Positions 2 through 57,321 of a stretch of 64,000 nucleotides of DNA are shown here, piece by piece (position 1 is the first letter of the stretch; the number at the start of each line of letters is the position of its first letter). Made by a program: the position numbers and the translations under genes. A model generated the notes under the pieces. The model did not search any database. It was not told the origin of the DNA and was given only the letters and a program-made list of their open reading frames with translations. This DNA is from an uncultured Chloroflexia bacterium (lineage in GTDB: Bacteria > Chloroflexota > Anaerolineae > JAAYZQ01): assembly GCA_963700285.1 (NCBI GenBank), contig CAVOXA010000022.1, forward strand, positions 192,001 through 256,000, given 5' to 3'.

Positions 2-40
2 TACGACCACGAGGCCTACCTGCCTCTGGTACTCCGATAG
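2..40 (+). CDS. 3' end of a gene entering from the left, ending ...YDHEAYLPLVLR*
   Basis: Manual translation from position 2 gives YDHEAYLPLVLR-TAG, the same C-terminal motif as the secreted proteins in this window. Confidence 0.75.
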   Translation, partial: YDHEAYLPLVLR

Positions 41-57
41 CCGGTACACCGACGTCT

Positions 58-94
58 CAGACCTCGGGGGTTCCAGGCAGACCCCCGAGGTCTG
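58..94. repeat. Palindromic AGAC(C/T)T...A(G/A)GTCT dispersed repeat
   Basis: cagacctcgggggt / acccccgaggtctg inverted pair; relatives at 1148, 1839, 27828, 58335, 59300 and 59994. Confidence 0.7.
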
Positions 95-109
95 GTATGA
101 GGACCTAAC

Positions 110-895
110 ATGAAACGATATGGCCAACCGCCCTATACCCTCGCCCTCATCCACGGCGGCCCCGGCGCGGCCGGCGAAATGGCGCCCGTGGCGCGCGAGC
201 TGGCCGCGGAGTGGGGCGTGCTGGAACCGTACCAGGCGGCCGACTCGCTGGAGGGCCAGATCGAGGAGCTGGCCGGCGTCTTGCGCGCCGAGGCCCGGCT
301 GCCCGCCCTCCTGGTGGGCCATTCCTGGGGCGCCTGGCTCAGTTGCCTGGTGGCGGCCCGCTACCCGGAACTGGTGAGCAAGTTGATCCTCGTTGGCAGC
401 GCGCCTTTTGAGGCGCGCTACGCCGGCCAGATCTATGCGACCAGGCTGAGCCGGCTCAGCGAGGCCGAGAAGGCTGAATTCGAGGACAGCATTTCCCGCC
501 TGGGCGACCCTGCCGCGGCAGGCAAAAACACGGCCATGGCCCGGCTCGGGGCGCTGGCCAGCAGGGCCGATGCCTACGATCTCGACCCGGCCGGCGCCGG
601 CGCCGTGCAATTCCAGGCCGGCATCTATGAGAAGGTCTGGCCCGAGGCTTCCGATCTGAGACACAGCGGGCGGCTCCTGGCGCTGGCGGACCAGATCCGC
701 TGTCCCGTGGTGGCCATCCACGGCGACTATGATCCCCACCCCGCGGAGGGCGTTGAGGCGCCGCTGGCCGGGCGCCTCGACGACTTTCGGATGGTCCTGC
801 TGTCCCGTTGTGGCCATACTCCCTGGCTGGAGCGCTGGGCGCGGGATGAGTTCTACCGGGTTCTCCGCAAAGCGTTGGACCTGAATGCCCCTTGA
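110..895 (+). CDS. Alpha/beta fold hydrolase
   Basis: HGGPG oxyanion motif, GHSWG nucleophile elbow, HGDYD and C-terminal GH; GAGGA RBS. Confidence 0.9.
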   Translation: MKRYGQPPYTLALIHGGPGAAGEMAPVARELAAEWGVLEPYQAADSLEGQIEELAGVLRAEARLPALLVGHSWGAWLSCLVAARYPELVSKLILVGSAPFEARYAGQIYATRLSRLSEAEKAEFEDSISRLGDPAAAGKNTAMARLGALASRADAYDLDPAGAGAVQFQAGIYEKVWPEASDLRHSGRLLALADQIRCPVVAIHGDYDPHPAEGVEAPLAGRLDDFRMVLLSRCGHTPWLERWARDEFYRVLRKALDLNAP

Positions 896-901
896 CAAGC
901 G

Positions 902-2805: not shown

Positions 2806-4864
2806 ATGTCTTCACAGTCTGTACTGTCCCTCCGCAGGCTCGGCCGAGGGCTATTGGTGCTCCCGCTTCTGGTCATCCTGCTGGTCGCTGCCGCCCCGGC
2901 AGCCCCGGCCGCGCCGCCGGCGCCCTATCTGGTCAAAGACATCAATCCTGGCAGTGCCGGCTCGCTGGCCTCGGAGGAATACTGGCCTGTCCATCCCGTG
3001 GAAATGGACGGCCGCATCTACTTCAAAGCTGACGATGGAACACACGGGTTTGAGTTGTGGAAGAGCGACGGCACCTCTGCCGGTACCGTCCTGGTCAGGG
3101 ACATCAATCCCGGATCGCACGGATCCGATCTCCAAACACTCATCGAGATGAACGGCATTCTGTACTTTTGGGCTGACGATGGCGCCCACGGTTTTGCCCT
3201 GTGGAGAAGCAATGGTACGACCGCGGGCACCGTCATGGTCAGAGCCGTGGGAGGCTCGTCCTCCTACCGGGGGGTAGAGGCGGCCGTTGTGAACGGGGTG
3301 CTCTACTTCGCCGGGATTGACAGCGAACACGGCACTGAACTGTGGAGAAGCGACGGTACTGCCGCCAATACCAGAATGGTAAAGGACATCCTCCCTGGAA
3401 AAGACAGCTCGGACCCGTCGTACCTAACTGAATTCAAAGGTGAGTTGTTCTTTGCTGCCGACGCCACGGCATCAGACTATGACACGGACAATCACTTGTG
3501 GAAAAGCAATGGCACCGAGAGTGGCACCGTCCTGATGCGAGACGGCAGCGGACAGTCCTTGCCATGGGTGTTTGGCCTCAAGGACGCAGGAGGCAAACTC
3601 TTTGTCAATATCGACCTTGACATTGGTGTCAGCGGCGTATGCGACGGGCGGTTGTGGAAAACCGACGGTACCCAGGCCGGGACTGTCGAGCTGCACAACC
3701 ATGTCGGATGTATCGACCAAATGGTGAATGCCGGTGGCAGGCTCTTTTTTGACGGCAACTACAGTGACGACTCCTGCTCCAAGCACACGCTATGGACCAG
3801 CGATGGCACCATAGGGGGGACCGTCGCCCTCAAGGATTTTGAGTGCTGGTGCGAGCTCTATGGCCTCTGGAGCCTGACACCGATGGAGGGCCGGCTCTAC
3901 TTCAGCGCCAATCCTCTGGACCTTTGGAAGAGCGACGGGACCGTGGCCGGGACCTCTGCCATCAAACCCTCCATCTTTGTCTGCCCCGAGTACGCCGACT
4001 CGTTCACGATGAAGGGGGTGAATGGCACGCTCTATTTCGCCGGCCACGACGAGACCCACGGCAACGAGCTTTGGAAGAGCGATGGATCGGCGGCCGGCAC
4101 CAGCCGCGTGAGCGACATCAACCCCGGCAAGGGCTGGGGCATCGATGACTGGAACTGGCTGGCCACCGCAGGCGGCAAGCTCTTCTTCCCGGCTGACAAT
4201 GGCAGCCAGGGGATCGAGCTGTGGGCCTTGGATACCGGCTCCTGCTCTGTCCCCGCCAAGCCGGTACTCATCAGCCCCACCGACTATGCCAGCACCTGCG
4301 ACGCCACGCCGGACTTGGTTTGGGAGCCGGCGAGTCGGGCCAAGCAGTACCAGATCCGCATCGCCGACGGTGATACGTCAGCAGTGGTCATCCAGACCGA
4401 GACGCAGGACACCCAGTTCCGGCCTCCGGCGCCCCTGGCGCCCGGCACCTACTTTTGGCGGGTGCGGGCCTCCAACGACTGCGGCTGGAGCGCCTGGTCG
4501 GAAAAGTGGTGGTTCACTGTGCAGCCACCGCCGGCCGTGCCCGGGCTCTCTTCGCCGGTGGACGGCAGCAGCACCTACGAGACGAGGCCCGTCTTTGAGT
4601 GGTTTGCGACCCAGGGTGCGAACAGCTACCGGCTCCAGGTGGACCAATGATGCCAGCTTTGCTTCGCCGGTCATCGACAAGACCAGGTCAGGCACGAGCT
4701 ACAGGCCGGATGACCCGCTGCCGCCGGGCACCTACTACTGGCGGGTGCGGGGCAGCTATGACTGTGGCAACGGGGCTTGGTCGACGGCGTACAGCCTGAC
4801 GGTACTGCCGGCCGGCCTGGAGTATGGGGCCTATCTGCCCCTGGTGACACGAGGTAGCCACTAG
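2806..4864 (+). CDS. Secreted ELWxxDGT-repeat beta-propeller protein with two FN3-like domains; frameshift near 4645
   Basis: Signal peptide and repeated ELWKSDGT; ORF 2806-4650 continues in the frame of ORF 4145-4864 (NDASFASPVID...YYWRVR...AYLPLVTRGSH). Confidence 0.85.
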
Positions 4865-4971: not shown

Positions 4972-7431
4972 ATGCCACCCGCTGTGAACCGACACGTTAC
5001 CGCCACCACCACCATCCTGCTATTGTCCGTTGTCCTGCTGCTGGCTGTCATCCCCCGAGCCGCTGCCGCGGACCCAGAAATTCAGGGCAGTGGCCTGCTC
5101 TTTAGCGACGCTGGCAGGGCGCCGGCTTCCTCGGGCAGCGGCGACCCGACTGCCCTTCGCCAGAGGCTGGTGCTGGCCGATCTGGCGCTGCTCGCACAGA
5201 GCAATGCAGGCGATACCCTCGGCCTCAACCTCTTTGAGGATGCCCTCTACCAGGGCGTCATCGACGACGTGACCAAGAACCCATCGGGCTCGACGTCGTG
5301 GATTGGACACCTTCGCGGAGAAGCCTACAGCCAATTCGTACTGGTCGTTGGCGGCGGCCAGATGGCTGGCAGCGTTACGCTGCCCGGCGCCATCTATGGG
5401 ATCCGGTACAAGGACGGGAACGTGCACGTCATCAGCGAGATCGACGGGATGGTGGAGCCTCGCGAGGGGCCGCCGATCCCCGTGGATGTGCCATTGGATT
5501 CGGCTCCACGCCATCCCTCCGGTCCAGCCGACGATGGCTCGATCATCGATGTCATGGTAGTCTATACGCAGGCGGCTCGAGACGGCGCCGGGGGTACGAC
5601 GGGTATGTTGAACCTTATCGACCTGGCCGTGTCAGAATCCAACCAGACCTACGCAAACAGCGGTATCGCTCAGCGTCTGCGCCTTGTCAACAGCGCGGAG
5701 GTTGCCTACGAGGAATCGGGATACACCACAACAGACCTCAACCGTCTGCGAGATCCTTCAGACGGAACCATGGACCGTGTGCACGCGCTCAGAGATCTGT
5801 TTGGGGCAGACTTTGTCAGCCTCTTTTTCGAGAGTGGGGATTACGGCGGGCGGGCGTACTTGATGACGACGGTGTCGAGTGATTTCAAAGACTTTGCTTT
5901 CAGCCTGGTGAAGCGTCGCCGGGCGGCCGGTGAGTACATCCTCGCCCATGAGCTTGGGCACAATATGGGGGCGCACCACGACTGGTATGTAAATGACACG
6001 ACCCAGCCCTATCCCTACAACCATGCCTTTCTCAACGTGGAAGGTAGGTGGATGACGGTCATGGGCTACTGGGACGAATGCGCTGCCAGAGGGTCTATGT
6101 GCTATGTCATCCCTTACTGGTCAAACCCAGACGCATCCTACCAGGGCGTTCCCCTGGGCGTGCATCCGGGTACCTCCGCGGCTTGCGTCGCCGGGGATCT
6201 GGATCATCCAGACTGTGACGCCGACAACCGGCTAACACTCAACAACACCGCCTTCACCGTGGCCAATTTTCGGCAGACGACGCAGCCGCCTACATGCTTT
6301 CCGCTGGCGACATCTGCCAGCCCCTCCGCCGCCGGTGCCGTCCTGTCCGATCCCGGCCCAAACTGCAGCGGCGACTATGTGGCGGGCACGGAGGTTAAAC
6401 TGACACCCAGCCCCAAGTCGGGCTACAGTTTCAGTCACTGGAGCGGCGCCTGCAGTGGTTCGTCCCAGACTTGCACGCTGACCCTGTCGGCCGCGAAACA
6501 GGTGGCCGCCGCTTTTGAGGAGATCGACTATGGCCGGATCATCGTCGACAAGGTGACAGAGCCGGCCGGCGCCGAACAGGAATTTCTTTTCGCCGTGACC
6601 GGTGGGCCTGAGAGCATCGACCGGGAGTTCAACCTGACCGACGCCGCTGCACCCCGCCAGGTCTCAAACCTGGCGCCAGGCGCCTACCGCGTCGTGGAGG
6701 AAGTGCCTGAAGGCTGGGATCTGGTCTACAGCAGTTGCGACGATGGCAGCGACCCAGGCGCCATCGATCTGGACCCGGGCGAGACAGTCACTTGCACTTT
6801 TTCGAACCAGCAGACCGGGTACTGTGCGATTCCGGCCGCGCCGGTCCTGCGGTCTCCGCCCAATGGAACCAGCACACAGGACCCCATGCCGGACTTTGAA
6901 TGGTCCCCGGCGACGGGCGCGGCCAAGTATCGTCTCCGGCTGGCCGAGGTAGATTCGGGCGCACAGGTTCTGAGCATCACCACCTCAAAGACGCATTTCA
7001 CACTGGAGACACCGCTGGAACCTGACACGTATTACTGGCGGGTGCGGGGCCTGAACGATTGCGGCGTCGGCAACTGGGCGCTGAGGCGTAGCGTAACCAT
7101 CCTGCCGACGCGTCCCCATCCGCCCCAATTGATGCTGCCGGATCACGACAGCCTGAACTGCCAGCCACTGCCCACCCTTGCCTGGAAAGGCGCCAAGGGC
7201 GCAACGGGATACCGCCTTCAAGTGGACAATGACAACAGCTTTTCATCGCCGGTGCTCGATGACGGCACGGCGGACACAGAGTACAACCCGCCCCATGGCC
7301 TGTCGCTGGGAACCTACTACTGGCGGGTGCTGGCCAGCAACAGCGCGGGCGACAGCGACTGGTCCTCGGTCTGGCGCTTTGTCCAGGGTCGCTGTATCCA
7401 TCTGCCGTTGGTGACGCGTGGCATCCGGTAG
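4972..7431 (+). CDS. Secreted M12B/reprolysin-like zinc metallopeptidase with InlB-B-like, prealbumin-like and FN3-like domains
   Basis: Signal peptide, IDVMVVYT, HELGHNMGAHH zinc motif, TVMGY Met-turn; ends IHLPLVTRGIR. Confidence 0.9.
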   Translation: MPPAVNRHVTATTTILLLSVVLLLAVIPRAAAADPEIQGSGLLFSDAGRAPASSGSGDPTALRQRLVLADLALLAQSNAGDTLGLNLFEDALYQGVIDDVTKNPSGSTSWIGHLRGEAYSQFVLVVGGGQMAGSVTLPGAIYGIRYKDGNVHVISEIDGMVEPREGPPIPVDVPLDSAPRHPSGPADDGSIIDVMVVYTQAARDGAGGTTGMLNLIDLAVSESNQTYANSGIAQRLRLVNSAEVAYEESGYTTTDLNRLRDPSDGTMDRVHALRDLFGADFVSLFFESGDYGGRAYLMTTVSSDFKDFAFSLVKRRRAAGEYILAHELGHNMGAHHDWYVNDTTQPYPYNHAFLNVEGRWMTVMGYWDECAARGSMCYVIPYWSNPDASYQGVPLGVHPGTSAACVAGDLDHPDCDADNRLTLNNTAFTVANFRQTTQPPTCFPLATSASPSAAGAVLSDPGPNCSGDYVAGTEVKLTPSPKSGYSFSHWSGACSGSSQTCTLTLSAAKQVAAAFEEIDYGRIIVDKVTEPAGAEQEFLFAVTGGPESIDREFNLTDAAAPRQVSNLAPGAYRVVEEVPEGWDLVYSSCDDGSDPGAIDLDPGETVTCTFSNQQTGYCAIPAAPVLRSPPNGTSTQDPMPDFEWSPATGAAKYRLRLAEVDSGAQVLSITTSKTHFTLETPLEPDTYYWRVRGLNDCGVGNWALRRSVTILPTRPHPPQLMLPDHDSLNCQPLPTLAWKGAKGATGYRLQVDNDNSFSSPVLDDGTADTEYNPPHGLSLGTYYWRVLASNSAGDSDWSSVWRFVQGRCIHLPLVTRGIR

Positions 7432-12189: not shown

Positions 12190-15100
12190 TTAGGGCTTTC
12201 TGACCAGCGGCAGATAGAGCCTGTAGGGCCTGTCCACCTCGATCTTTAGGGACAGTCTCTGCTCCGGGATAGGCCCGCGGTTGCCGGCCCGGTCGCGGAC
12301 GTCAAAGGCGATCTGGTAGGCGCCGGGCGCCCAGCCGGCCGTGTCCCAGATCAGGTGGCCCATTGCTGCGGGCATGGATCCCAGGAGGCGCCACGCGCCG
12401 CCCCCGGCGCCTCTGCACGGCCAGCGCGCCCAGCCGAGGCGGCGACATAAACGTCGATCCCCTCGATCCCGCTTCCCCCGCCAGCACCGTCCGTGGCCGT
12501 CACCTCGATGGTCACCGCTGCACCCGGGCGTGGCGCGGGCGAGGGGCTGGCGACGGCGGCCAGGATCTCGGGCGGCCTTCGGTCCAGCAGGACCTGGGTG
12601 CTGGTGATGGTGGTGCCCACACCGCCGAGCAGGAGAGCGGTAGCCCGCAGGTCGACCAGCCCATCCGGCGCCGCCAAAGCGTCCCAGACCAGGCCCCAGC
12701 CGTCAGCGCCGGTCGTATCCGTGCCCAGCAGGGCCCAATCGCCACCCTCCTGGCGCGCTTCAAAGCGCACCTCCTGGACCTGGCTGTACGCATCGGTCAC
12801 GCCGGCCTTGATCTCGACGGCGCGGGCGTCGAGGATGGCCCTGCTGCCGGGGACGAGGGACAGGCCTGGCCGGGACCGGCGTGGCGAGCCGGCCAGTTGC
12901 AGCGCCACGCCGCTGGCCTGGCCCAGGATATCGCCCACGGTGCCGGTCACGACGGCGTTGCTCTCGGCCGTCCAGCCCTCGCCGTAGCGGACCCCGACCG
13001 CGGTATGCTCGATGCTGGCCACGACGGAGAAGGGCAGGATGGCTGCCAGGCCCTGGCCGCGGAAGGCCGGGCCGTCCCCGGTGTCCGCACTGTACCGGAT
13101 CTCGCCCGCCGTGACGTCCACGGCGTTGTGGTGTATCTGGCTGAAGGCGCTGCCGGCCCGGATCTGGACGCCGGCCAGCGCTGGATCGGCGTCCACGATG
13201 CGCAAGACGCCGGGGTCATAGTCGATGAGCAGGTCGACGCCGGCTACGTCCTGGCCCCCGGTGTCCAGATGGACCTCGAGTTCAAAGGTATCGCCAACCT
13301 GGTAGGCGCCCGCTGCCGGGCTCAGGGCCAGGCTCGCGGCCGGCGAGCCTCCGGACAGGCTCTCCCCGCCGTCAGCGGGGGCGGCAGCGGCCGCCTGGCA
13401 GGGTGATGCATCCGTCCACCCCGCGCCACGCCTCCCCCACTGGTCGCCGACCGTGGCCAGGTCCAGGGCGTCTACCAGGCCGTCGCCGTTGACGTCCTGG
13501 CCCGGGTCCGTGCCACCCATGCCCATCCAGGACGTTCCGGTAGTCCATCAGGTTGACCTGGTTGTCGCCGCCGGGCTGGCCGGCCCAGGTCGTGTCCCCG
13601 GCCACGAACTCCCCCAACGCGAGTTGGTTTGTGCCCTGCTGGAACTCGACGGCCGGCAAGACCTGCCGCAGGGCCGTGCTTGGTTTTACATAAACGTCAT
13701 AGACCTCGCCGGCTTGCGCACAACCGGTGAGGTCCAGGCCCGCGATGCCGCCCTGCGCGTCCGTCTCGACCACCTTGCGGCAGGCGCAGGTCAGCTTTCC
13801 GGCCCTGGCGAGCACGATCTCGACGCTGGCCCTGTAGGTCAGGCCGGTGGCCAGGTCCAGGCGGACAGGCTTGGGCTGGCAGGCGCTGGCGTCCGTGTCC
13901 CACGCCAGGCGAACCTGAGCGTCGCCCGTCTCTTCACGCAGCAGCAGGCGCAGGCTGTGGCGGCCGTCGAGGTTGTAGCCCCCGTCTCCGTCGCAGATCT
14001 GCCGCGCTCCCGGACCGTCATGGTGGGCGATTTTGCGCCCGTCCAGCCACAACTGGGCGCCGCCGTTGTGGTCCAGGTAAAAGACGTATTCGCCCTGGTC
14101 AAAATCCAGGGCCGTGCGGAACTCGCCCACCCAGTCGTCGCCGGCCAGATCGCCACAGGGCGCGCCGGCGGCCCAGTCCACCGCCAGGCCGGGCCCGTCT
14201 AGCGTCTCCGAACAGAGGCTCGGGCGGCAGCCGCTGTCCCACCAGCAGGCGTCGCCCGCATCGTAGCGGGCCTTCCACTTCTGGGGGCCCGCCTCCGGGA
14301 TGGGCGCGCAGCCGCTGCCGGCAAACAGTTCAAAGGAGGAGACCTGGTCGTTGAGGAGGACCTGCCCGCCGTCGAAATAGTCGCCTTCGAAAGTCTCTTC
14401 GTCCGAGCTGCGGCAGGCCGAGGCGCCCGCCCGGTCCACGTGCTCGTGAAGCCGCACCGAGGCCCCGGCCGGCAGGTGCAGGGAGGATGCCCGGTCGTTA
14501 AAGCCGGCCGGCACGTTCTGCCAGCCCGGGTCGCTGCGTTGGACGTAGCCCAGGCCCTCGCCCTGGCCGCCGCAATCGTAGCCGGCGTGTTTGTAGAGGA
14601 TAGCGCCGCCCGCTTGCGGGCACTCGGCCGGGCCCGGGCTGTTCTGGGAGACGAGCACCAGTCCTGCCTGGAGTTCTTCCCAGGCAGCTTCGGCAAAGTC
14701 AAAGGTGAGGCGGTTCTGGGGCCAGGCCGCGGCATTGGGATCGTTGGGATCGGGCAGGGTGGGCAGGTCCGAAGAAACCATGTAATGCAGGTGCACGCCC
14801 GTGGCAAAGCCGGTTTCGCCCTCGACGCCGATGGGCTCGCCGCTGGCGATGGCGGCCCCGGCATAGACGCCCTCGGGCACGCTCTGGTAGGCCAGGTGCA
14901 CGTACCACGAGTACTCGTTGGCGGCGTGGCGGATGACGACCATGTTGGCCTGGCGCCAGCAGTCCAGGCTGGCACAGCCGCTGTTGCTCGAGTCTTTGGC
15001 AAAGACGACGGTCCCCCCCTTGGCGGCGGCGACGGTGCCCGCGCCCCAGGCGCTGGAAGCGGTCCACAGGTTAAAATCGACCTGTTTGTCGTGGTTGGTC

Positions 15101-15588
15101 CCATCCCGCCGGACGACCGTACCCTTGTAGCCCTCCAGCCAGGGCACCTTGTAGCCGGTGACCTCTGCCTGGGGGCCGGCCGGGGCTGGGGACGTGCCGA
15201 GGTAGCGCTTGGTCTGCGCGTCGATGAGGGATTCCGGCGCCGCCGCCAGCCAGGCGTCGAAAAGGCGCTCGCCGGGCAGCGCGGCCTGCCAGCTCCCGTC
15301 GGCAGCGCGGCGGGCCAGGATGACCAGGGGCTCCGTGGGCGCCGGCTGGCCGCTGGTACGGCTCGTTGCCCGGGCCGTGGCATAGGCCCAGTCGCCGGCC
15401 TGGACAGTTTCCGCGACCTGCCAGCGCAGATCGGGATCCGGCAGCGTCTCCAGCCGGTTCTGGACAGCGGCCCGGATGGCGTCCGTGCCCTGGGTCGGTG
15501 GCAGCGAGGCTGGGGCGGCAAGCAAGGGCAGCGCGACCGCAATGAGCAACAGCAGAACCACAGATAGGATGGCGAGGGTTCTTTTCAT
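12190..15588 (-). CDS. Secreted M23-family peptidase with beta/gamma-crystallin-like, PA14-like, dockerin, cohesin and Ig-like domains; frameshifts near 13530 and 12370-12420
   Basis: Signal peptide; HDKQVDF, YVHL and TGVHLHY M23 motifs; DNQVNLMD/DVNGDGLVDALD dockerin pair; VGDTFELEV..VDLLIDYDP cohesin; ends LYLPLVRKP. Confidence 0.8.
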
Positions 15589-23716: not shown

Positions 23717-23779
23717 GGACTCCTCCTTGTCTTCTGATTCTGGAGAGCCAGGAACCTGCCTCCGCGCTCCCCGGATACC

Positions 23780-23808
23780 AGTATACACCGAAACAGGCAG
23801 TCTGTCCA
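23780..23808 (-). promoter_or_regulatory. Promoter
   Basis: TGGACA-17-TATACT, followed by GG. Confidence 0.55.
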
Positions 23809-23948
23809 GGCGAATGAATGGACGTTGTGGGCCGATCGCAAGACAAGATCTGCTCGTGCTGGACCACAGTCCAGCACACCGTGGCGAAAAAAAGACCCTT
23901 GGGGTTTTCCGCAACCCCAAGGGTCTGGTCGGCGCCGCGTCGCTACAC

Positions 23949-30773: not shown

Positions 30774-31290
30774 TTGGCCGTGATCTGCACCTGGGTCCCG
30801 GCCGCGTACTTGGTCAAGTCCCCGGTGCAGTTGGGTTCCGTACCGGCATCGACCGAGCCGCCCGCGGCGGGGTTGGCGCTGGTACTCAGGCTGTAGCATA
30901 CCTCGGCGGGACTGGCCGACAGGGCCGCCTCGTGGTACTGCTGGTCGCTGGTCCAGACAAGTGCGGGCGACACGGCTGCCGCATCGCCGCTGAGGCGAAA
31001 GGCGACGGGCTCTCCCGGACGCATACCCGCGATGGGCGGCCGGGCCGTGGTGTCCTCGCCAAAGACAAACATGGCGCCATCGTGTCCCGCGGTCGTCACT
31101 CTAATGCAGTCGGCTATGATCCCCCGAGGCTGAGGTCCTGGCCCTACCTGAAATGTCGGCCCGCTCGTCGCCAAAGGCTGCCGCGTCGTCCACGGCCTGT
31201 CCGTGAAAGCTCAGGTCTGTGTCCCCGCTGTGGTCCTCGTCGGCGGCGAGCTCGATGGCCGCCCCGGTGATGCTAGCTCCCCTGGGGGAT
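30774..31290 (-). pseudogene. Chimeric remnant: duplicate of 30094-30456 joined to a fragment of the 'SSDDA' domain
   Basis: Near-identical direct repeat at an offset of 680 bp; IPQGASITGAAIELAA...FHGQAVDDAAAF...DISGR fragment without a start or signal peptide. Confidence 0.75.
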
Positions 31291-37000: not shown

Positions 37001-38956
37001 TCAACGGGCGTGCCAGACGCCGATGGGCAGATAGATCGACCTTGGCGGGACAAAGGGACCGGTGACATCAAATTGATCGATGATCTCACCCTCAATCGTC
37101 TTGAAATAGCCCTCAGCTTGATAGGGATCGCCATTTACATGAAAGGTGATGAACAGTGCACCATAGGCGGCGTCTGGATCTTGGTCGGTCGTGTAGACTT
37201 TGGCCCACTCTTGCTTGCAGCCGTAGGGAAAAGTACTGGGCAGACAGCGGTCCTGGTTTCTCATGCTTTTGCCACCGGCCCCAGAAACAAATACAAAGGT
37301 CCTGCCCGGACCGACACAGACATCGACGTCAGGCGTGTCGGGGTTGTCTTCACAGGAAAGGTCAACTTTTTGGTTTTCCGTACTGGTCAGGGTTCTGGTG
37401 CGCTGATAGCTGTGTTCGTGACCGGTAGCAATGATGGCGCCAAAATCGAGGCAGTTTTCATAGGCTTCCCAGCCAACCGCATCCCCCTTCACGCCGAGTT
37501 GCATGGCGTTTTGGTTCTTGTGCCAGGTACAAAGCTTCCAGATGTGAGCATCGTTTCGAAACTGATCGCGAATGTAGGAAGCGTCAGCAGAACTCAGCGT
37601 ACCGATACCAGAAAGGATAAAGGACAGGCCCCGATAGGTACAGGAGGCTTGGACCCCCAAATCGCCATCACAACTGGCACCCGGGGTTTTGTCGAGATGA
37701 CTCTGGAGTATCGATTGATAATCAGGCCAACGATCGCGCAGGATATCGTGATTTCCAACAGTGCCAAAGTATGGGTAACTGTCACCCAGGTGGTCGGATA
37801 TCACTTGCTCCCACTTTTTAGGTCCATCCTCATAGCCAAAGTCGCCCTGATGGAGGACCATGTCAGCGCCTTCCGCTTTGATGAGGTCCAAGACGGCCCC
37901 AAATTCAGCCCCGGCGCCCGAATCACCGATGAAAGCGACCTTGAGGCCGGAATCGGTAGGAATGGGAGTGACTTCGGTATACTGAAAGTGGGCAGCGACA
38001 GAGTGGTTGGCGTCCATGGTGAGGGTGTCTGGGTTGGTGGAACCGGTCAGGTCGTCGCTCCAATTGCTAAAGGCATAATACTTGGCTGTGGGTTCAGCCG
38101 TCAGTTCCACCGTCTCCCCCATGTAGTACTTGCCATCCGCACAGTTGGGTGGCGGATCAGCCACCACTGTCCCCGCGCCTGGGGGGATGACGTTCGTGGT
38201 CAGGGTGACGCAGGCAGTCTCACCGGCGAACGTGACGACCAGCTTGGGGCTCAGGGCCACGTTTGACTGGTCTTTGGCGCCGTCGTAGGATACCGCGGTC
38301 CGCCGGCCTGCCGTACCGGTGATCTGAAAGGCGATGGCGTTGCCGGGCGTCCAGCCCGCGCGCCGCACGATCTCCTGGACGATGGCGCTCAGGTCTGGGC
38401 TTCGGTGCGTTCCGCCCTCCTCCGGCCAAACCGGCACAGAGTCCCAGTCCACCGACGCAGAAGTCTTGGGCCGGCCACTGATGTCATAGGAGGCGTCCCC
38501 TTCTTTGTACGTGGCAGCGGTGTCACTGGCTTCGCCAGAGATGGTCAGATCGGTGGGGTCAAGATTCCCTCCAGGATCCGTGGCCGTGAACTCGATATAG
38601 GCCTGCTCAATGCGGACACCCTTGGGGATGTCCAGGTTGGCGAAGCGAAGGCCCACGTATTGGGGCCCCACCGGGCCGAGACCAAGCTCCAGTGTATTGC
38701 CGCGGTCCTGTACTTTGCCTTCCCAAGGAGCCTCGACATGCTCCTCGGCGTCGTCGGAGGACTGGCTGACCCTCACCTCGATGGTATCGGTGGCGCTTGC
38801 CAGGACGCCGGCGCCTCCGCTTCGGCTTTGCATGGGCAGATCCGCGCTGCCGGCCGCCCGGGCAACCGAGACCAGTACGACCATCAGGAGCAGGGACACA
38901 GTTATCAGACCCAATACACGGATCAGACGTTTCAAGAGCATCATTTCTTTGACCAA
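37001..38956 (-). CDS. Secreted calcineurin-like metallophosphoesterase with 'SSDDA' and InlB-B-like domains
   Basis: GDSG, GDFGY, GNHD, WH and GHEH motifs; ends IYLPIGVWHAR. Confidence 0.88.
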   Translation of the reverse strand: MVKEMMLLKRLIRVLGLITVSLLLMVVLVSVARAAGSADLPMQSRSGGAGVLASATDTIEVRVSQSSDDAEEHVEAPWEGKVQDRGNTLELGLGPVGPQYVGLRFANLDIPKGVRIEQAYIEFTATDPGGNLDPTDLTISGEASDTAATYKEGDASYDISGRPKTSASVDWDSVPVWPEEGGTHRSPDLSAIVQEIVRRAGWTPGNAIAFQITGTAGRRTAVSYDGAKDQSNVALSPKLVVTFAGETACVTLTTNVIPPGAGTVVADPPPNCADGKYYMGETVELTAEPTAKYYAFSNWSDDLTGSTNPDTLTMDANHSVAAHFQYTEVTPIPTDSGLKVAFIGDSGAGAEFGAVLDLIKAEGADMVLHQGDFGYEDGPKKWEQVISDHLGDSYPYFGTVGNHDILRDRWPDYQSILQSHLDKTPGASCDGDLGVQASCTYRGLSFILSGIGTLSSADASYIRDQFRNDAHIWKLCTWHKNQNAMQLGVKGDAVGWEAYENCLDFGAIIATGHEHSYQRTRTLTSTENQKVDLSCEDNPDTPDVDVCVGPGRTFVFVSGAGGKSMRNQDRCLPSTFPYGCKQEWAKVYTTDQDPDAAYGALFITFHVNGDPYQAEGYFKTIEGEIIDQFDVTGPFVPPRSIYLPIGVWHAR

Positions 38957-39432: not shown

Positions 39433-41802
39433 CTAGTTCTCGCGCATGACAACGGGCAGGTGGATGCAACCCAGTTGTTTGAAGCTCCAGGCCGGCGACC
39501 ACGCACCGTGACCGCAGTCGGTGGCAGCGCGCACGCGCCAGTGATAGCTGCCCGCTGACAGAGGCGTTGCCGGGGTAAAGCTGGTGCCGGAAACCTCACT
39601 GTCGATTTCTGGCGAGGAAAAGTCAGCGTCATTGTCCACCTGGATCCGGTAGGAGCCTGCACCGGTGGCCGCTGACCAGGCAAAGGTCGGCGCCGTGCGG
39701 CCCGTGTTGCCGCCATCGGGCGGTGAGGAGAGCTCGGGCTGGGAGTCGCTAACCACAACCTCCAGACCAAAATACTCCGCGAAGGCTGGATCCTCATAGT
39801 CCAACCAAATAGAGGTTTCAACGTCACAGGACGGGGCCTCTGGAAGGAACTCATCTGTCAGACCTGGCCCGAACTTCACATACAAGCGAACGTCATAGTC
39901 CTCGGGCACATTTGCCAAATGGGCCTCCGTGTAGCGGTCGTTATGCTCCACGGCAACGACGGAAATGCCCGACGCATGGTCGGTGTAGTCACGCGTGTTG
40001 GCATTGGCAATCTGCCGGGCAACCCCATCCGGTCCGGTCACGACAACGGCTACGGCACCCCCACCTCGCTTGGGGTTCAGCTTACTTATGGGTGGGGTCC
40101 GGTTGGTGCACTTTTCGTAGTGTTGGCTGATTACAAGATCCTCCAGCGCTGTCTCTCCGGTTTCGGCGCTAGAGACCGCATCGTACTCACCAGGGGTGTA
40201 GTTGCGCACCTTGCAGCTTGGCCTTAGCTCGGCCTCAATCGTAAAAGTCTGCTGGTTGGAGTCGGAGTCCAGCTCAGTACCCAGATAGGTGCCGCCGGGG
40301 CAGTCGATCCTGTCGTCATTGAACCAGCCATCGCCGTCGTTGTCCTGCTCGAAACAGGAATCCGCCTGGGTGTAGCGGCTTTCGCCAAAGACTGGAGTAG
40401 GAGGTTCTGAGACACTTATTCTAGCCCATTGAATGGAGTTCTTGTTGTCAATAGATAGTGTACCGTCGGGGTGAAGAGACACCTCGAAAAACAAATCGGG
40501 GTACTTCTCTTTGTCCCAATCTTTGGGGGGGTAGCCGGTCGAAGGAAGCGTGTACATCATGATCTCGTTCGAGTTGATGGGGTTAAAGTCATGAGTATCT
40601 GAATTCCGGACAGATCCATCTGTGGTATTCCAGATATAGGATTTGGCTGCATGGACGTGACCTGTAATTACTGCCTTGATTTTCGGAGCACGATTTTCGA
40701 GCAAGTCTATGTAGGCATCGGCTGTGTCTTGGCATAAAGTAGGAGCGGTTCCGCGTATTTCGCCCTCCGGAGAAACATGCCAGAACAAAATGGCCGTCTT
40801 TCCGGAAACCTTTTCATCCAAATAAGCATCGAGGCCCAACAATTGGTCTATGCTGAAACGCACACAACTTCCTTCCGCAAAGCTGTGCACTGCTTCACCG
40901 CTATGCAATAAATAGAAATGCCACCCGTTGGTTTGAGTTGCAGGAATTTCGTCTGCTACTGGAATGAATGGTGTAACACGATACCAACTGGAATAATCTG
41001 TAAACTGAGCCACGGCCTCTGGCAGGTGAATACTCTGCTTCTTCCCATAGTCTCTTATGTCGTGATTACCCAATACCGTGTAATGGGGCACGTAGGGGAA
41101 AGTCTCGCTGACATATTTGAAATACCATAAAGGCGTAGTAGTATCGGGAAAGAGACCCGTATATTCGAGATACAAGTCTTCGATAGCATCCCCAAGGGCG
41201 ACAACAAAACCAGGATGAAAACCATCCGTGCGTAGACGTGCGCCTACATCCTCCAGGCGCGCCCTTTTGTGATCCTTCTCGGTTTTGTATTGACAGGGCC
41301 ACTTTGTGGGGGGCGAGGGGGCGGGCCACGGTGGCCAATTCGGCGGATAAGAGGGGTTACAGATATGTGAGTCAGCGTACACAGCAAACTGCACCTCTCC
41401 CACCTCTCCTCCTACCGAGAAGTAGGCTTCCACCGAGCCCTTGCCGGGAGAACTACTGAATTCGTAGAGCACATAGAGGCGATGTGGGCCGTAACTCAAG
41501 CTGCTGGGGTCGTAGCGGATGGAGAACGGGGGAGTGGAACTCGTACCTACGGGGCGGTCGAAGATGGTTTGGCGATCGATCCAGAATATCGCCTCGAAGG
41601 TATCGTCTGGTAGACCAGGGTCGAAAAAAATGTAGAACGGACCGTTAACCAGCGCACCCTCCAGTGGCTTCGCTGTTGAAGGGTCGTTTGAATAGCTATA
41701 GGTGATCTCTATTGTCGCTGCAGGTCCTGACGCCAGTGCCACTGCAGATTCTGTCACCAGGAGTACCAGCAAGACAGCGACTGCTTTCTGTAGGTTTCTC
41801 AT
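39433..41802 (-). CDS. Secreted calcineurin-like metallophosphoesterase with a C-terminal FN3-like domain
   Basis: DSH, GD, GNHD, WH and GHVH motifs; signal peptide; GGAGGAG RBS; ends IHLPVVMREN. Confidence 0.82.
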   Translation of the reverse strand: MRNLQKAVAVLLVLLVTESAVALASGPAATIEITYSYSNDPSTAKPLEGALVNGPFYIFFDPGLPDDTFEAIFWIDRQTIFDRPVGTSSTPPFSIRYDPSSLSYGPHRLYVLYEFSSSPGKGSVEAYFSVGGEVGEVQFAVYADSHICNPSYPPNWPPWPAPSPPTKWPCQYKTEKDHKRARLEDVGARLRTDGFHPGFVVALGDAIEDLYLEYTGLFPDTTTPLWYFKYVSETFPYVPHYTVLGNHDIRDYGKKQSIHLPEAVAQFTDYSSWYRVTPFIPVADEIPATQTNGWHFYLLHSGEAVHSFAEGSCVRFSIDQLLGLDAYLDEKVSGKTAILFWHVSPEGEIRGTAPTLCQDTADAYIDLLENRAPKIKAVITGHVHAAKSYIWNTTDGSVRNSDTHDFNPINSNEIMMYTLPSTGYPPKDWDKEKYPDLFFEVSLHPDGTLSIDNKNSIQWARISVSEPPTPVFGESRYTQADSCFEQDNDGDGWFNDDRIDCPGGTYLGTELDSDSNQQTFTIEAELRPSCKVRNYTPGEYDAVSSAETGETALEDLVISQHYEKCTNRTPPISKLNPKRGGGAVAVVVTGPDGVARQIANANTRDYTDHASGISVVAVEHNDRYTEAHLANVPEDYDVRLYVKFGPGLTDEFLPEAPSCDVETSIWLDYEDPAFAEYFGLEVVVSDSQPELSSPPDGGNTGRTAPTFAWSAATGAGSYRIQVDNDADFSSPEIDSEVSGTSFTPATPLSAGSYHWRVRAATDCGHGAWSPAWSFKQLGCIHLPVVMREN

Positions 41803-42131
41803 CTCTCTCCTCCTCCCTGCAATCATGTCCGTGACACGCGCCAGCTTGCAGTCAACTTGGGGGTTAAGACCTTGTCTAGTATAACATACATTGCGCCGGG
41901 GGTCAAGCGACTTCTGAGCGACCCATACGGCTGTTGCAAAGTCGTCATCTGGTTCTAGCGCGCGTCCATTCTGCTATTCCCTGCCGAGTGGTTGACCCTC
42001 ACGCCCTTGACCTCGGAGCAAAGCACCAGCGGTTGCCCTTTTCCAGGAGCGGTGGTATACTGCCACAGTAGCCCGGTCCAGCTACCAGGACCGGAACCAT
42101 CTCAAGCCAAGAAAAACAGGGAGGAAACACA

Positions 42132-43149: not shown

Positions 43150-43377
43150 TCTTCCACGGTGCCTGGGGCGCCACTCCATGTGGAATGACGCCGCCAATCT
43201 GCCATTGCGAGTGCTCCATGGCACAGGGCGCCACTCTAAATGGAATGACACCTGACCTCGTCATTGCGAGCGGAGGCGCTTTTTGCCGGAGCAAGCAATC
43301 CCCAACTACACAAGTGGAGACTGTCACCGCGAGGCCCGTGGCGGTGCCTCGCCCCAAAGGGCGGGCCTCGCAGTGAC
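43150..43377. repeat. Cluster of GTCATTGCGAG...GCAATC-type palindromic repeats plus a short direct duplication
   Basis: gggcgccactc...tggaatgac occurs twice; gtcattgcgagc...gcaatc; gtcaccgcgaggccc...gggcctcgcagtgac. Confidence 0.6.
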
Positions 43378-43405
43378 GCGGTTGGTGTCAAAAAAAGGTA
43401 GGCAG

Positions 43406-44536
43406 ATGAAAAGACGTGTTGTGGTTGGCTGCTTGTTGGTAGTACTGCTGGTGATGGCTCCGGCATGGGAGACTGCCCTGTCCGCGGGCCCGGAGCCTGC
43501 GCCGGGCAACGGCTGGCAGGCCGAGATTGTGGACGGCCAGGATAGCGACGCAGGTGCATCTACCTCGGTCGCCGTGGATAGCGCCGGGCGCCCGCGCATT
43601 TCATATTGTGCCGGCAATGAACTCAGATATGCCGCATACGATGGTGCGGTGTGGCAGATAGAGACCGTGGAGGACAATCACTGCGCGGGCACTTCGCTGG
43701 CGCTGGATGGCGCGGGCCGTCCCCACATCAGCTACTATTCTGCTGCCCTGGCCGATCTGAGGTACGCCTGGTATGACCAGGGCGGATGGCAGATTCAGGT
43801 TGTGGCTGATGAGGGCAGGGTGGGAGCTTATAGCTCGCTGGCGCTCGACCGGGCTGGCAGACCCCATATCGCCTACTGGGACGACACCCAGAAGGCCCTC
43901 AAGATCGCCCACTGGGATGGGGCTGCCTGGCAGTTCCAGGTCGTGGATGCCCAGGTCACCATCGTGGTTCCGGTTTCCCTGGTGCTGGACTCGGCGGACC
44001 GGCCGCATCTGGTCTACCGGACCCACAAGTCACCCTACACGGTCTACTATGCGCGCCACGACGGGAGCGGTTGGCAGATCGAGCCGGTCAGCGCATCGTC
44101 CACCGGCCTGTATGCCTCGCTGGCCCTGGACGCCGGCGACCGGCCCCACGTCTGCTACCAGGATTGGCACCTCAAATATGCCCATCTCGATGGTGGTACG
44201 TGGCACAGGGCGACGGTGGAGGAGGGCTTGACCGCTGGTGATTTTTGCTCTCTGGCACTGGACGAGGCCGGCCGGCCCTCCATTGCCTACGCGGACTGGG
44301 AGCCCCCCGAGCACTATGTGCATTTTGCTTACAGGGCTGGCTCAGCGTGGCAGATTGAGCGCGTGGATATGGTTGCCCAGATACCCCACCGATACGTGGA
44401 CCTCTCTCTGGCCCTGGGCCAGGACCGCCAGCCGCACATCAGCTACCACGAATTGGGCGCCTACGACCTCAAGTACGCCACCAAGGCAGTACTGCCCATC
44501 CGCCAGATCTACCTGCCGCTGATTGCAGGCCGGTAG
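43406..44536 (+). CDS. Secreted beta-propeller protein (SLALDxxGRPHISY repeats)
   Basis: Signal peptide, about seven W-x-x-E-x-V...SLALD repeats; ends IYLPLIAGR. Confidence 0.88.
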   Translation: MKRRVVVGCLLVVLLVMAPAWETALSAGPEPAPGNGWQAEIVDGQDSDAGASTSVAVDSAGRPRISYCAGNELRYAAYDGAVWQIETVEDNHCAGTSLALDGAGRPHISYYSAALADLRYAWYDQGGWQIQVVADEGRVGAYSSLALDRAGRPHIAYWDDTQKALKIAHWDGAAWQFQVVDAQVTIVVPVSLVLDSADRPHLVYRTHKSPYTVYYARHDGSGWQIEPVSASSTGLYASLALDAGDRPHVCYQDWHLKYAHLDGGTWHRATVEEGLTAGDFCSLALDEAGRPSIAYADWEPPEHYVHFAYRAGSAWQIERVDMVAQIPHRYVDLSLALGQDRQPHISYHELGAYDLKYATKAVLPIRQIYLPLIAGR

Positions 44537-54683: not shown

Positions 54684-54689
54684 GAAGCG

Positions 54690-55081
54690 CCGGCTACGAA
54701 CGGGTGGCTGCCGGGTGGGGACCCGTTCGTAGTGCGCGTTTCAACGCGCTCTCGCCGGCCACGAACGGGTGGCTGCCGGGTGGACCCGTTCGTAGCGCGC
54801 GTTTCAACGCGCTCTCGCCGGCCACGAACGGGGGCTGCCGGGTGTGGACCCGTTCGTAGTGCGCGTTTCAACGCGCTCTCGCCGGCCACGAACGGGCGGC
54901 TGCCGGGTGGGGACCCGTTCGTAGTGCGCGTTTCAACGCGCTCTCGCCGGCCACGAACGGGTGGCTGCCGGGTGGGGACCCGTTCGTAGTGCGCGTTTCA
55001 ACGCGCTCTCGCCGGCCACGAACGGGTGGCTGCCGGGTGGGGACCCGTTCGTAGTGCGCGTTTCAACGCGCTCTCGCCGGC
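54690..55081 (+). repeat. Tandem array of 6 x ~61-62 bp GTAG-family REP units
   Basis: gacccgttcGTAGtgcgcgtttcaacgcgctctcgccggccacgaacgggtggctgccgggtggg repeated. Confidence 0.93.
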
Positions 55082-55842
55082 CCCTCAAAAAAGCCACAGA
55101 AACGCTCAAACCCCAGCCGCTCATAGATGCGCACCGCCCCCTCGTTGGCCTGGCCGACGTTGAGCACGACGTCGTCGATGCCCTGCGCCAGCAGCGCCTC
55201 CACGACGGCGCCGGTCGCCGCCGTGCCATGGCCCCGGCCGCGATAGCCGGGGTGGGTAAAGACGTTGCCCACGGCGGCCACGCCGTAGGTTGGGCTGGCC
55301 AGGTGGGTGCCGCCCACGGAAACCAGCTCTCCCTGCTCATAGATCCCGCAAAATACCCCCTGCTCGATCTGGGCCGGGCTGAAGGCCAGGCCGCCGCCCA
55401 GCTCGTACAGCGCCGCCAGCCGCCCGGCGTCGCCGGCACGCAGCCGGACGCAAGGGGCCGCCGTGGGTTGGAACCTCGACGGCCGCAGCACCATGCGCCA
55501 CATGGGCACCGGCTCCGGCCAGTCGTAGAACTCGCGGGCCAGCGGCACCTGCTCCGGCCGGCAGGTCAGATAGACCGGGTCGGGGCGCAGCTCCTGCTCG
55601 AGGATGGCCCGCAGGCCGCCCGCCGTCCCGGCCAGGAACAGGGCGGCGGGGGTCAGGCCGCGATAGTGCAGGACCAGCGCCTGCTGGACGCCGGCCTGCC
55701 AGGCCCCGGCCCAGGTGCAGTCCTCGAACAGCCCCGGCTCCAGGTCGCCGATGGCATAGGCCGTGTAGAGGCGGTCCTGCTCCAGGTAGGCCAGGATCTG
55801 GGCCCGGTCCTCGAGCCTGGAGGTGTGGTAGGCTGAGGTCAT
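55063..55842 (-). CDS. GNAT family N-acetyltransferase
   Basis: VGNVFTHPGYRGRGHG, NEGAVRIYERLGF; GGAGGAAGG RBS. Confidence 0.9.
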   Translation of the reverse strand: MTSAYHTSRLEDRAQILAYLEQDRLYTAYAIGDLEPGLFEDCTWAGAWQAGVQQALVLHYRGLTPAALFLAGTAGGLRAILEQELRPDPVYLTCRPEQVPLAREFYDWPEPVPMWRMVLRPSRFQPTAAPCVRLRAGDAGRLAALYELGGGLAFSPAQIEQGVFCGIYEQGELVSVGGTHLASPTYGVAAVGNVFTHPGYRGRGHGTAATGAVVEALLAQGIDDVVLNVGQANEGAVRIYERLGFERFCGFFEGPARAR

Positions 55843-55956
55843 TCCTTCCTCCCACGCAGCAACATGGCGGTTGCCCCTGTCTGGGGCTGATCCCGCCGCC
55901 CCAAGCCCTCCGGTCACGGACCGGAGGAGAGCAGCGCCGAGGAGCGGCGCAGATGG

Positions 55957-57321
55957 CTAGCGCACCACCAGTGGCAGCCAGAGCGCGTGGGGGACCCAGG
56001 CGTGCCCATAGATCTGGCTGCTCACGGTCGGGTCGCCGGTCGCATCGCCTTCAAAGGCGATGAGATAGGTGGGCGGGCTCGCTGCTACCGCGGGACTGCT
56101 CTCCTCCCAGAACTCTGCCCCGGGGACACTGAGCCACTCCGCCGCCAGTCCTTCGCCCCAGCGCCGCGCGGCGATCGCCTGCCCGTTGGGCATCGCCCGC
56201 TGCCAGACGGCCAGATATTCGGGCGGGCTGTCCCGGCTGGCCACGATGACGGGTTGTGTTTCGTCCTGGGCCAGGTTGCTGACGGCGAACCACGTCCCCA
56301 CGGTTGCGCCCTTCTTGTTCACCTTGCGGGCATAGATATCGCGGTCTGTTGGCTGGAACTCGTACTCCCAGACGGCCAGATAGTCGCCCTTGCCGTCGGC
56401 GGTCACGCGTGGCGCGGTCTGGTTCTGGACCCCCGAGTGGATCTTGATCGCCCCTGGTGGGTTGACCACGGCATTGTCGTGGCTTATCCGCAGGCCATAA
56501 ATATCGTCGCCGGTGGTCTCCAGGCTGTACGACCGGACAAAGACCACAAAGTACTCGTCCTCGGCCCAGCCGTAGGCCACGTCGGCCTGGTGGGGATAGG
56601 TAGAGGTGGTGAGAACGCGGCCCTGCAACAGATTGCCTTCGTTGTCTAGGAGCACGCTGGAGACGTCGGTGGGGTGATGCGGAGTTGTCGTATCAAAAGC
56701 CGTCCAGACGACCAGGTACTGGTTCCGGTTGTGGTTCCAGGCCACGCGTGGCGCCACCATTGATCGGTCCGGCCAGGAGATGATCTTGAACTCGGGTTTC
56801 TGGTAGGATCCGTCCCAGGCGACGATCCGGCCCCAGATCTCGTACTGGGTCCCGTTGCCGCTGGCGTCGTACATCCAGACGATCAGGTACTCGGCGTCCG
56901 CGGCGTTGTAAGCGGCCGCCGGTCGAATCCGGTCGCTGGCCCCCGTTGTGATGGCGAGCCAGCTCAGCTTGCGGCCGTGCTGGGTTACGCGCCGGGCATA
57001 GATGTCCCTCCGCCCGTCAGGCCACTCGTTGTCCCAGACCACCAGGTATTCGCCTCGGACATAGTTGGCCGCGATGGCGGGGGAGTGCCGGTCCGCTTGG
57101 GGCATGCCGGCTGCCTCGGAGATCCAGATCTCGGGGCTGAGACGCCCCTGGTGGGCCCTGTTTTCCCCCGGCGACGCGCCGGCCAGTGGAGTTTTTCCCC
57201 CCTCCTGCGGGGCGGTGGGAGCCCCGGCGGCCGGGAATGCCCGCCCCGTGGAGAATGCCCGCGGCGGCAGCAGCACAACGGCCGCGATCAGCAGCGCGAA
57301 CGACAGCTTCCGGGCGAACAT
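55957..57321 (-). CDS. Secreted repeat (propeller-like) protein with YLVVW...DIYAR repeats
   Basis: Signal peptide, repeated PxVA(Y/W)N...YLVVW units; ends LWLPLVVR. Confidence 0.85.
   Translation of the reverse strand: MFARKLSFALLIAAVVLLPPRAFSTGRAFPAAGAPTAPQEGGKTPLAGASPGENRAHQGRLSPEIWISEAAGMPQADRHSPAIAANYVRGEYLVVWDNEWPDGRRDIYARRVTQHGRKLSWLAITTGASDRIRPAAAYNAADAEYLIVWMYDASGNGTQYEIWGRIVAWDGSYQKPEFKIISWPDRSMVAPRVAWNHNRNQYLVVWTAFDTTTPHHPTDVSSVLLDNEGNLLQGRVLTTSTYPHQADVAYGWAEDEYFVVFVRSYSLETTGDDIYGLRISHDNAVVNPPGAIKIHSGVQNQTAPRVTADGKGDYLAVWEYEFQPTDRDIYARKVNKKGATVGTWFAVSNLAQDETQPVIVASRDSPPEYLAVWQRAMPNGQAIAARRWGEGLAAEWLSVPGAEFWEESSPAVAASPPTYLIAFEGDATGDPTVSSQIYGHAWVPHALWLPLVVR

Follow-up and report, generated by a model that had tools for sequence, protein, structure and literature searches.

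The stretch analysed here (the window; 64,000 nucleotides, G000:C22:192001-256000) belongs to an uncultured Chloroflexia bacterium whose genome assembly, G000, comprises 7.05 Mb in 22 contigs (89% complete, 6.5% contamination). Twelve of its genes end in a short tail of the form [YFHW]-L-P-[LIV]. These are YLP-box tags, a motif on exported proteins of Chloroflexota that has been catalogued though not explained, and we describe a candidate docking partner for them that is encoded elsewhere in the same genome. Genes were called with a crude home-made caller (codon log-likelihood scoring and greedy overlap resolution) and not with Prodigal. All twelve C-terminal strings reported by the first-pass annotation were found at their stop-side coordinates, in the following genes (aa, amino acids; ranges behind the tails are those of their codons).

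1..40, plus strand: 3' end of an exported protein of 1058 aa, whose gene starts at G000:C22:188864, 3136 bases before the window; tail YLPLVLR (17-37, stop 38-40); the translation of an alternative start, MTSKTRSLAAIAVVLL, resembles a signal peptide
2806..4864, plus strand: exported protein split over two frames, 2806-4650 with the signal peptide and 4145-4864 with the tail YLPLVTRGSH (4832-4861)
4972..7431, plus strand: reprolysin-like metalloprotease of 819 aa with B-repeat, SpaA-like and fn3-like domains; tail HLPLVTRGIR (7399-7428)
12190..15588, minus strand: M23 peptidase / cohesin / Big_7 protein split over three frames, the last piece at 12190-12375; tail YLPLVRKP (12193-12216)
20731..24001, minus strand: protein with DUF7948, SBBP propeller and B-repeat, split over two frames; signal peptide (MIYNRTAWSKIIIILALLASVVPLAAVPAVA) within the upstream piece; tail YLPLAQREAP (20734-20763)
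23949..27818, minus strand: protein with DUF7948, SBBP and four B-repeats, its likely start at MTHSRAPWFTLLATLVLL; tail YLPLAFRNRP (23952-23981)
28001..28744, minus strand: protein of 247 aa with signal peptide and one B-repeat; tail YLPLVWGVP (28004-28030)
28741..30899, minus strand: B-repeat protein split over two overlapping frames; tail FLPLIRGGP (28744-28770)
37001..38956, minus strand: B-repeat and Metallophos protein of 651 aa with signal peptide; tail YLPIGVWHAR (37004-37033)
39433..41826, minus strand: Metallophos protein of 797 aa with signal peptide; tail HLPVVMREN (39436-39462)
43283..44536, plus strand: BNR_4-like protein with signal peptide (MKRRVVVGCLLVVLLVMAPA); tail YLPLIAGR (44510-44533)
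55957..57321, minus strand: protein of 454 aa with signal peptide and without a Pfam family; tail WLPLVVR (55960-55980)

Ten of these tails terminate genes chosen by the caller, and those at 4864 and 28741 terminate open reading frames (ORFs) that overlap an ORF of the same gene in another frame. The first-pass annotation had counted eleven complete genes, all with signal peptides. Signal-peptide-like N-termini are indeed present on eight intact genes, but four tails sit on the last piece of a split gene (2806-4650 + 4145-4864; 13372-15588 + 12351-13526 + 12190-12375; 21611-24001 + 20731-21828; 29484-30899 + 28741-30066), with the signal peptide on the upstream piece in all four. The frame breaks in these large genes for secreted proteins represent either assembly indel errors or the decay of a paralogous gene island. 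At 30900-31389 the N-terminal portion of the gene at 29484-30899 is present a second time, frame-shifted.

The cargo is as varied as had been described: Pfam recognises a reprolysin-like metalloprotease, an M23 peptidase, cohesin/Big_7, InlB B-repeats (divergent ones), DUF7948 with SBBP propellers, two Metallophos proteins and BNR_4, and in the tailed proteins these domains stop before the tails. The tail had been noted to be missing from cytoplasmic proteins; none of the remaining called genes of the window, which encode ordinary cytoplasmic or membrane proteins, carries the terminal motif, and a secreted 1768-aa protein at 31389-36695 is also without it.

The tail is strongly enriched throughout the genome (6028 called genes, 1.97 million residues). 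The loose 4-mer [YFHW]LP[LIV] occurs 352 times, 59 of them at most 8 residues from a C-terminus, where the internal rate predicts about 8, with a peak 3-6 residues from the end. The strict 7-mer [YFHW]LP[LIVM][VILAMT]x[RK] was found 44 times at most 8 residues from a C-terminus, against 0.57 expected (Poisson P about 3e-66), which excludes chance, and 20 times elsewhere. Enrichment among proteins with signal peptides, which had been proposed as a check, was borne out genome-wide: a home-made rule (not SignalP) was positive for 28 of the 44 strict-tail genes and for 920 of 5984 other genes (odds ratio 9.6, P 7e-13), and its 16 misses include visible signal peptides that it overlooked as well as fragments of split genes. 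Considering that variants such as YLPTILR, YLPMILR and LLPFVSR also occur, the true tagged set is larger than 44.

Seven of the 44 strict tails lie within or just before the window, and a second tagged cluster occupies a glycan-synthesis locus at 1.65-1.70 Mb of contig C10. This island of tagged proteins (G000:C10:1649000-1702000) stands amid genes for Wzy_C, four GT2, GT4, Bac_transf, a MurJ-like flippase and PMT_2. Clustering of the neighbourhoods of 46 tagged G000 genes returned glycosyltransferases and paralogous cargo, with no candidate enzyme. Three ABM-like (PF03992) paralogues of 94-96 aa (window 2038-2322 and 7747-8031, and G000:C10:1817588-1817878) each directly adjoin a YLP-tagged gene.

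NCBIfam release 20 already covers the motif with two curated models. NF050076 (sort_motif_YLP) spans 11 positions and has a cut-off of 15 bits, NF053834 (ultrashort_CTERM) spans 10 and has a cut-off of 10 bits, and each is titled 'YLP-box putative sorting motif-containing protein'. They describe the same motif, in the same position and on the same kind of protein as the tails of the window, name no mechanism or partner, and are listed by NCBI as 'putative' with no reader given. When 11 window tails were scored as 40-aa pieces (the tail ending at 40 was left out), four were matched by these models. The best, YLPLVRKP at 12190, exceeded both cut-offs (16.5 bits with NF050076, 15.2 with NF053834) and was the only one to pass NF050076, with YLPLVTRGSH (13.5) and WLPLVVR (13.3) below its cut-off; NF053834 was also passed by YLPLIAGR (12.8) and YLPLVTRGSH (12.3). 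The other seven had no listed NCBIfam match, HMMER filters discarding weak matches, and most of the window tails are thus divergent members. A six-frame search of the whole G000 genome gave 36 matches. Full-text literature searches on the YLP-box, its accessions and its model names returned no paper on the motif, and the string 'YLPLV' led to unrelated papers only.

The earlier remark that Chloroflexota proteins carry similar tails proved sound, since the NCBIfam models, the counts in 200 genomes given below and the named records make the motif typical of the exported proteins of this phylum. Support was likewise obtained for a dedicated signal on exported proteins that does without a transmembrane (TM) helix: the tails end 0-7 residues past the 7-mer core with no hydrophobic helix, which fits an ultrashort C-terminal motif and sets them apart, as had been argued, from LPXTG and PEP-CTERM signals.

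That the signal is C-terminal is correct as regards its massive enrichment there, though it is not strictly C-terminal. About nine of the 20 strict internal matches in G000 fall at domain boundaries of signal-peptide proteins, and two copies stand near the N-terminus, shortly past the signal peptide and ahead of PA14 repeats or a glycoside-hydrolase-like domain; the regions downstream of the internal tags are mutually unrelated. The top-scoring tags in families f8, f16, f17 and f32 read (R/K)(V/L)YLPLVx(R/K) followed by 0-3 residues and the stop, with 14 of 19 terminal and five continuing into more protein. These internal and N-proximal copies imply that a free C-terminus is not required. An internal YLPLVSRN also occurs in an 830-aa membrane protein with nine TM helices (G000:C10:135453-137945), where it immediately precedes the last small domain and the final helix.

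The tag also travels between proteins. A search with the 797-aa Metallophos protein of the window (5 matches only) retrieved homologues of 52-58% identity that share the tag and keep it behind different last domains (P0002, ...THLPVIMREN; P0003, ...GYLPLVFHRPR). The last 95 aa of the protein at 28001-28744 were folded with AlphaFold2 (AF2; 5 paralogues): the B-repeat was modelled with a pLDDT of 85-92, and the last 15 residues had no secondary structure, their pLDDT falling to 60 and then 43. In this single folded case the tail is unstructured behind a folded B-repeat, so it does not form the final strand of the domain before it, a possibility raised beforehand as an objection. The tag is a free, portable peptide with no dependence on a free carboxyl end.

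The first-pass annotation had left the reader of the tag without a name; a concrete candidate is encoded in G000, outside the window. We refer to it as the dock: a secreted protein of 446 aa (G000:C10:832446-833786) with four ASRT-like beta-sandwiches, single-copy in G000 and without a Pfam family. Secreted ASRT/ASRAH tetrads have been described in Roseiflexus, Chloroflexus and Herpetosiphon (De Souza, Iyer and Aravind 2009, PMC2739507). The probe was a hidden Markov model (HMM) built from the eight ASRAH domains of two tetrad proteins of family f44 (L015 and L016, each from another genome), in which every domain opens with a WYLAEG-like strand and which match PF07100 weakly. It recovered one ORF of G000, C10:832404-833786 (E 6e-4), with four domain matches. 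PF07100 itself was rejected as a probe, its single match in G000 being an ABC substrate-binding protein and its matches over the 50-genome set defined below being limited to stand-alone ASRT proteins and weak f44 hits. A tetrad protein of G154 used as query found nothing in G000, and the dock was not singled out by searches for spaced internal LP motifs or by half-against-half self-alignment.

The signal peptide of the dock ends in APGASA, and domain 1 opens directly behind it at ITWTSGFQVQN (QGITWTSGFQVQN). Domains 2, 3 and 4 open with TIGLPLIMRGNSG, EVSLPLIMANNSG and KVSAPLIMANNSG (in longer readings TTIGLPLIMRGNSGYYTWFNVQN, TEVSLPLIMANNSGFYTGIQVQN and NKVSAPLIMANNSGYYTGVQVMN), that is, with a leading strand xLPLIM(R/A) that domain 1 does not have. 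Tag and strand have a common register, in which a hydrophobic or aromatic residue and then L/A precede the proline, two to three aliphatic residues come next, and the fourth position after the proline is basic; HLPVVMREN, YLPLVMR and YLPIVMR are tails that resemble the dock strand. The AF2 model of the dock (12 homologues; pLDDT 85.7, pTM 0.85) lists for domain 2 a leading strand E118-130 followed by E133-141, and for domain 1 seven strands beginning with E29-37, the equivalent of the second strand. With Foldseek, the sole domain-level match in the PDB was 1nc7_B, a Thermotoga maritima ASRT homologue (probability 1.00, TM-score 0.73 on the target, root-mean-square deviation 3.2, 112 columns), and the predicted structure indicates an ASRT-type beta-sandwich fold. 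Judged by sequence and model together, the dock appears to be what donor-strand complementation asks of an acceptor: its first domain is predicted to be one strand short relative to its paralogous domains.

The gap is conserved. Among stand-alone homologues from tag-rich genomes (f1, f8, f16, f17, f32), nine of nine open domain 1 right after the signal peptide with the strand absent, as against three of three homologues from tag-poor genomes that have the strand in all four domains. The complete forms are a tetrad of G104 (TTLFIPFVLKR behind a Pro/Thr linker), an S8 subtilase of G140 fused to a complete tetrad (NTLHFPLIMKD) and a tetrad of G095 (STLFVPVAIKR). Scanning named records with a 4-sequence alignment gave 51 loci, all from Chloroflexota (among them Anaerolineales, Ardenticatenaceae, Promineifilaceae, Caldilineaceae, Chloroflexaceae, Roseiflexus and Thermoflexales), with Oscillochloris trichoides DG6 and Candidatus Viridilinea mediisalina as named carriers; the nearest homologue (94% identity) belongs to an uncultured 'Chloroflexia' metagenome-assembled genome. 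The core of domain 1 begins within about 2-12 residues of the signal peptide in 46 of the 51 loci, the remaining five being uninformative (truncated, masked or misaligned).

Gene order around the dock is conserved too: a methyltransferase lies upstream in 41 of the 51 loci, while 36 have an LPG_synthase_TM-like membrane protein and 28 a downstream lipoprotein of about 200 aa. The conserved string (G000:C10:820000-834498 and loci L050-L100) consists of radical-SAM genes, one or two methyltransferases, the LPG_synthase_TM-like protein, the dock and the lipoprotein, which has a Pro/Thr linker and a small beta domain. This lipoprotein was considered as a strand donor and discarded: its LYLAPLI is unconserved, the proline missing from three of four homologues.

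To follow the two partners across the phylum we used 200 genomes drawn evenly from it, with tags counted as NF050076 matches and dock homologues accepted at E 1e-5 or better. The tag count is a weak measure, as the 11-position model also matches in 9 of 14 control genomes and single matches consequently mean little. Its distribution is bimodal (at least 10 matches in 16 genomes, 5-9 in 15, fewer in 169), and a dock homologue is present in 15 of the 16, six of the 15 and 16 of the 169, respectively. Genomes rich in tetrads within long ORFs (G095 with 11 matches, G140 with 10, G182 with 8, G131 with 7, G104 with 5) have only 1-3 tags each, a pattern suggestive of alternative solutions, with the complete module used in cis or just the strand in trans. 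Within a set of 50 genomes picked from the extremes of the sample (20 tag-rich, with at least 8 tags, and 30 large tag-poor ones), the dock (E 1e-3 or better) occurs in 17 of 20 tag-rich and four of 30 tag-poor genomes.

We propose that each tag is a detachable beta-strand that slots into the strand-less first domain of the four-domain protein and so holds its cargo at the cell surface, a reading to which we would give even chances. The 7-residue tag would supply the first beta-strand that a dedicated four-domain carrier lacks and would bind in trans to domain 1 of the dock, so that cargo would snap onto the envelope with no sortase-like attaching enzyme. The dock itself would be held at the envelope, perhaps via the adjoining lipoprotein or via sugar binding, the latter having been proposed for ASRAH domains (PMC2739507). 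A tag that is portable, kept behind different last domains and unstructured fits a strand and not a reader of the C-terminal carboxylate. By extension, and with the scales again evenly balanced, Chloroflexota may display dozens of unrelated secreted enzymes by this split-domain trick, while tag-free sister lineages may fuse the whole module instead.

Several observations weigh against strand docking. The tag-rich genome G011 (22 tags, 99% complete) yields no homologue with the dock query; 10 of the 31 genomes with at least 5 tags are without a dock match, and 16 genomes with few tags have one. The tag-rich set essentially amounts to five families (f1, f8, f16, f17, f32) whose members are relatives and not independent, so any lineage-specific gene would correlate with the tag, as Peptidase_C25 does. 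The dock has no PF07100 match, the match of our own HMM to it is weak, and the free edge of domain 1 would follow from the AF2 strand list alone. Stoichiometry is awkward, with one vacant site per receptor and one receptor gene for at least 44 tagged proteins. In some families the tags (YLPLVxR) are more uniform than the inner strands of the receptors (e.g., NFPLAKN in G126), which means that there is no fine co-variation, and four of the 12 window tails are without a basic residue four after the proline.

The peptidase is the first alternative to be weighed. PorU, an enzyme of the C25 family, cleaves type IX cargo and transfers it to an envelope glycan, and a gingipain/PorU-like C25 cysteine peptidase may in the same way read the tag, cut at or after its Arg/Lys and perhaps transfer the cargo to an envelope glycan; we regard this rival as unlikely. 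In the 50-genome set the C25 pattern is as clean as that of the dock. Of the 20 tag-rich genomes, 18 have a PF01364 match, which is strong in f8, f16 and f32 but weak and partial in f17; of the 30 tag-poor ones, three have a match, strong in G016 only. G000 has four strong C25 genes (three in tandem at C7:28051-38774, the fourth at C10:2089657-2090970). An Arg/Lys-specific peptidase would find a fitting site in the conserved basic residue, and the 0-5 variable residues that follow could serve as the leaving group. On the other hand, all four C25 proteins of G000 carry the tag or a variant themselves (FLPLVTRGSKAP, IFLPVIQRTAH, LLLPFVSR and an internal YLPLVAKR), so the correlation may only reflect common cargo, and the caveat of kinship applies to C25 as it does to the dock. 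The inner strands of the receptors (LPLIMR, PVVMK, PFILK) already account for the basic residue of the tag, and in the two proteins with the tag ahead of the catalytic domain, the enzyme would be lost if the N-terminal part were cleaved off and attached. The C25 proteins of G000 may be favoured cargo, processing enzyme or both. Ranked by support, strand docking, at about even probability, stands first and C25-dependent processing, at a low one, second.

Equally doubtful is that the tag has another reader (a receptor, a chaperone or a secretion step), or that the tails are relics of tetrad modules truncated after the first strand and now do little. The tag-bearing genomes without a dock match mentioned above speak for it, and fusions of enzymes with tetrads do exist, truncation of which would leave exactly such a tail. 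Selection is nevertheless argued for by the retention of the tag behind different domains in the Metallophos homologues and by a near-identical core in at least five families, and a relic would leave unexplained why the receptor lost exactly this strand in the 46 loci.

Far less probable is a sortase subclass that would recognise the LPxx of the tag and link cargo to the wall as with LPXTG. G000 does encode five sortases, one of them head to head with a tagged gene (C1:1771176-1774793), tag-rich genomes tend to have 3-6 sortase matches, and in f32 a C25 gene adjoins a sortase gene. Sortases are however found in 44 of the 50 genomes (19 of 20 tag-rich, 25 of 30 tag-poor; the tag-rich G012 has none) and hence do not discriminate, and those of G000 have ordinary substrates ([LVM]PxTGG, TM helix, basic tail). 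The tag has no TM helix that would keep a substrate at the membrane, and N-proximal tags would be senseless for a sortase. The C25 and sortase genes lie within about 1-2 kb of each other in six f32 genomes (e.g., G099:C7:102625-104993, G144:C2:318045-320410 and G048:C1:280944-283306).

Processing of the tag as an extremely shortened PEP-CTERM-type signal by the single G000 exosortase (C1:1373206-1374057) is hardly credible. In its favour, the enzyme passes the general model TIGR02602 (140.7 bits, cut-off 105.55) with no named type, and no PEP-CTERM-like substrates were seen among the G000 C-terminal helices listed. It was rejected on its phyletic pattern: PF09721 was detected in four of 20 tag-rich and two of 30 tag-poor genomes overall, and the 14 tag-rich genomes of f16 and f32, each 99-100% complete, gave no match. 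The exosortase region (G000:C1:1372454-1374057) includes an EpsI-like neighbour in an exopolysaccharide (EPS) locus, and G000 also encodes several CPBP proteases.

Two further regions of the window stand apart from the tagged genes. On the minus strand at 16949-18945, a Cys-rich repeat protein family is encoded by four small ORFs in tandem, which give repeated short matches of the Zn-ribbon_13 and 'SAND_ULT1' types. The segment at 48829-54683 (73% G+C, many overlapping ORFs) is possibly a STAND or caspase-like module; it contains genes for a CHAT + AAA_16 protein and for an S8 subtilase of 338 aa in which no signal peptide is visible.

The question bears on how Chloroflexota retain exported enzymes at their unusual multilayered envelope. 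A single-copy, phylum-wide partner that appears to be short of exactly a tag-like strand makes the reader of the YLP-box a matter for the bench. If docking is true, proteins would be displayed here without the help of an enzyme, and the tag and its receptor would form a natural tag/catcher pair of very small tag size that may have practical uses; should the tag turn out to be cleaved, the C25 peptidases become candidate sorting enzymes of the phylum.

Among known sorting systems, LPXTG/sortase and PEP-CTERM/exosortase signals are tripartite and include a TM helix. The YLP-box is like them in having a short proline signature, then hydrophobic residues and then a basic one on signal-peptide proteins, and unlike them in its lack of a membrane-spanning helix, in that no exosortase was found in most tag-rich genomes and in the non-discriminating distribution of sortases. 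The signal of the type IX secretion system (T9SS) is a folded C-terminal domain of about 70-100 residues, and its sortase PorU is of the C25 family. Here too a C-terminal address is placed on unrelated exported proteins, and C25 peptidases co-occur with the tag and carry it; the tag differs in its 7-11 residues, unstructured in one model, and in belonging to another phylum, and the tailed proteins showed no match to a sorting domain in Pfam or NCBIfam. In chaperone-usher pili, donor-strand complementation polymerises subunits of one family by means of a chaperone and an usher. The arrangement proposed here resembles it, in that an incomplete beta-sandwich would be completed by a strand from another polypeptide, and differs in that dozens of unrelated enzymes would donate their strand to one common carrier. 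Whereas the secreted ASRT/ASRAH tetrads, as far as covered by the part of PMC2739507 drawn on here, are always fused to an amidase, unlike the dock, and are presented there with no mention of a missing strand or a tag, they have the same fold and the same four tandem domains as the dock.

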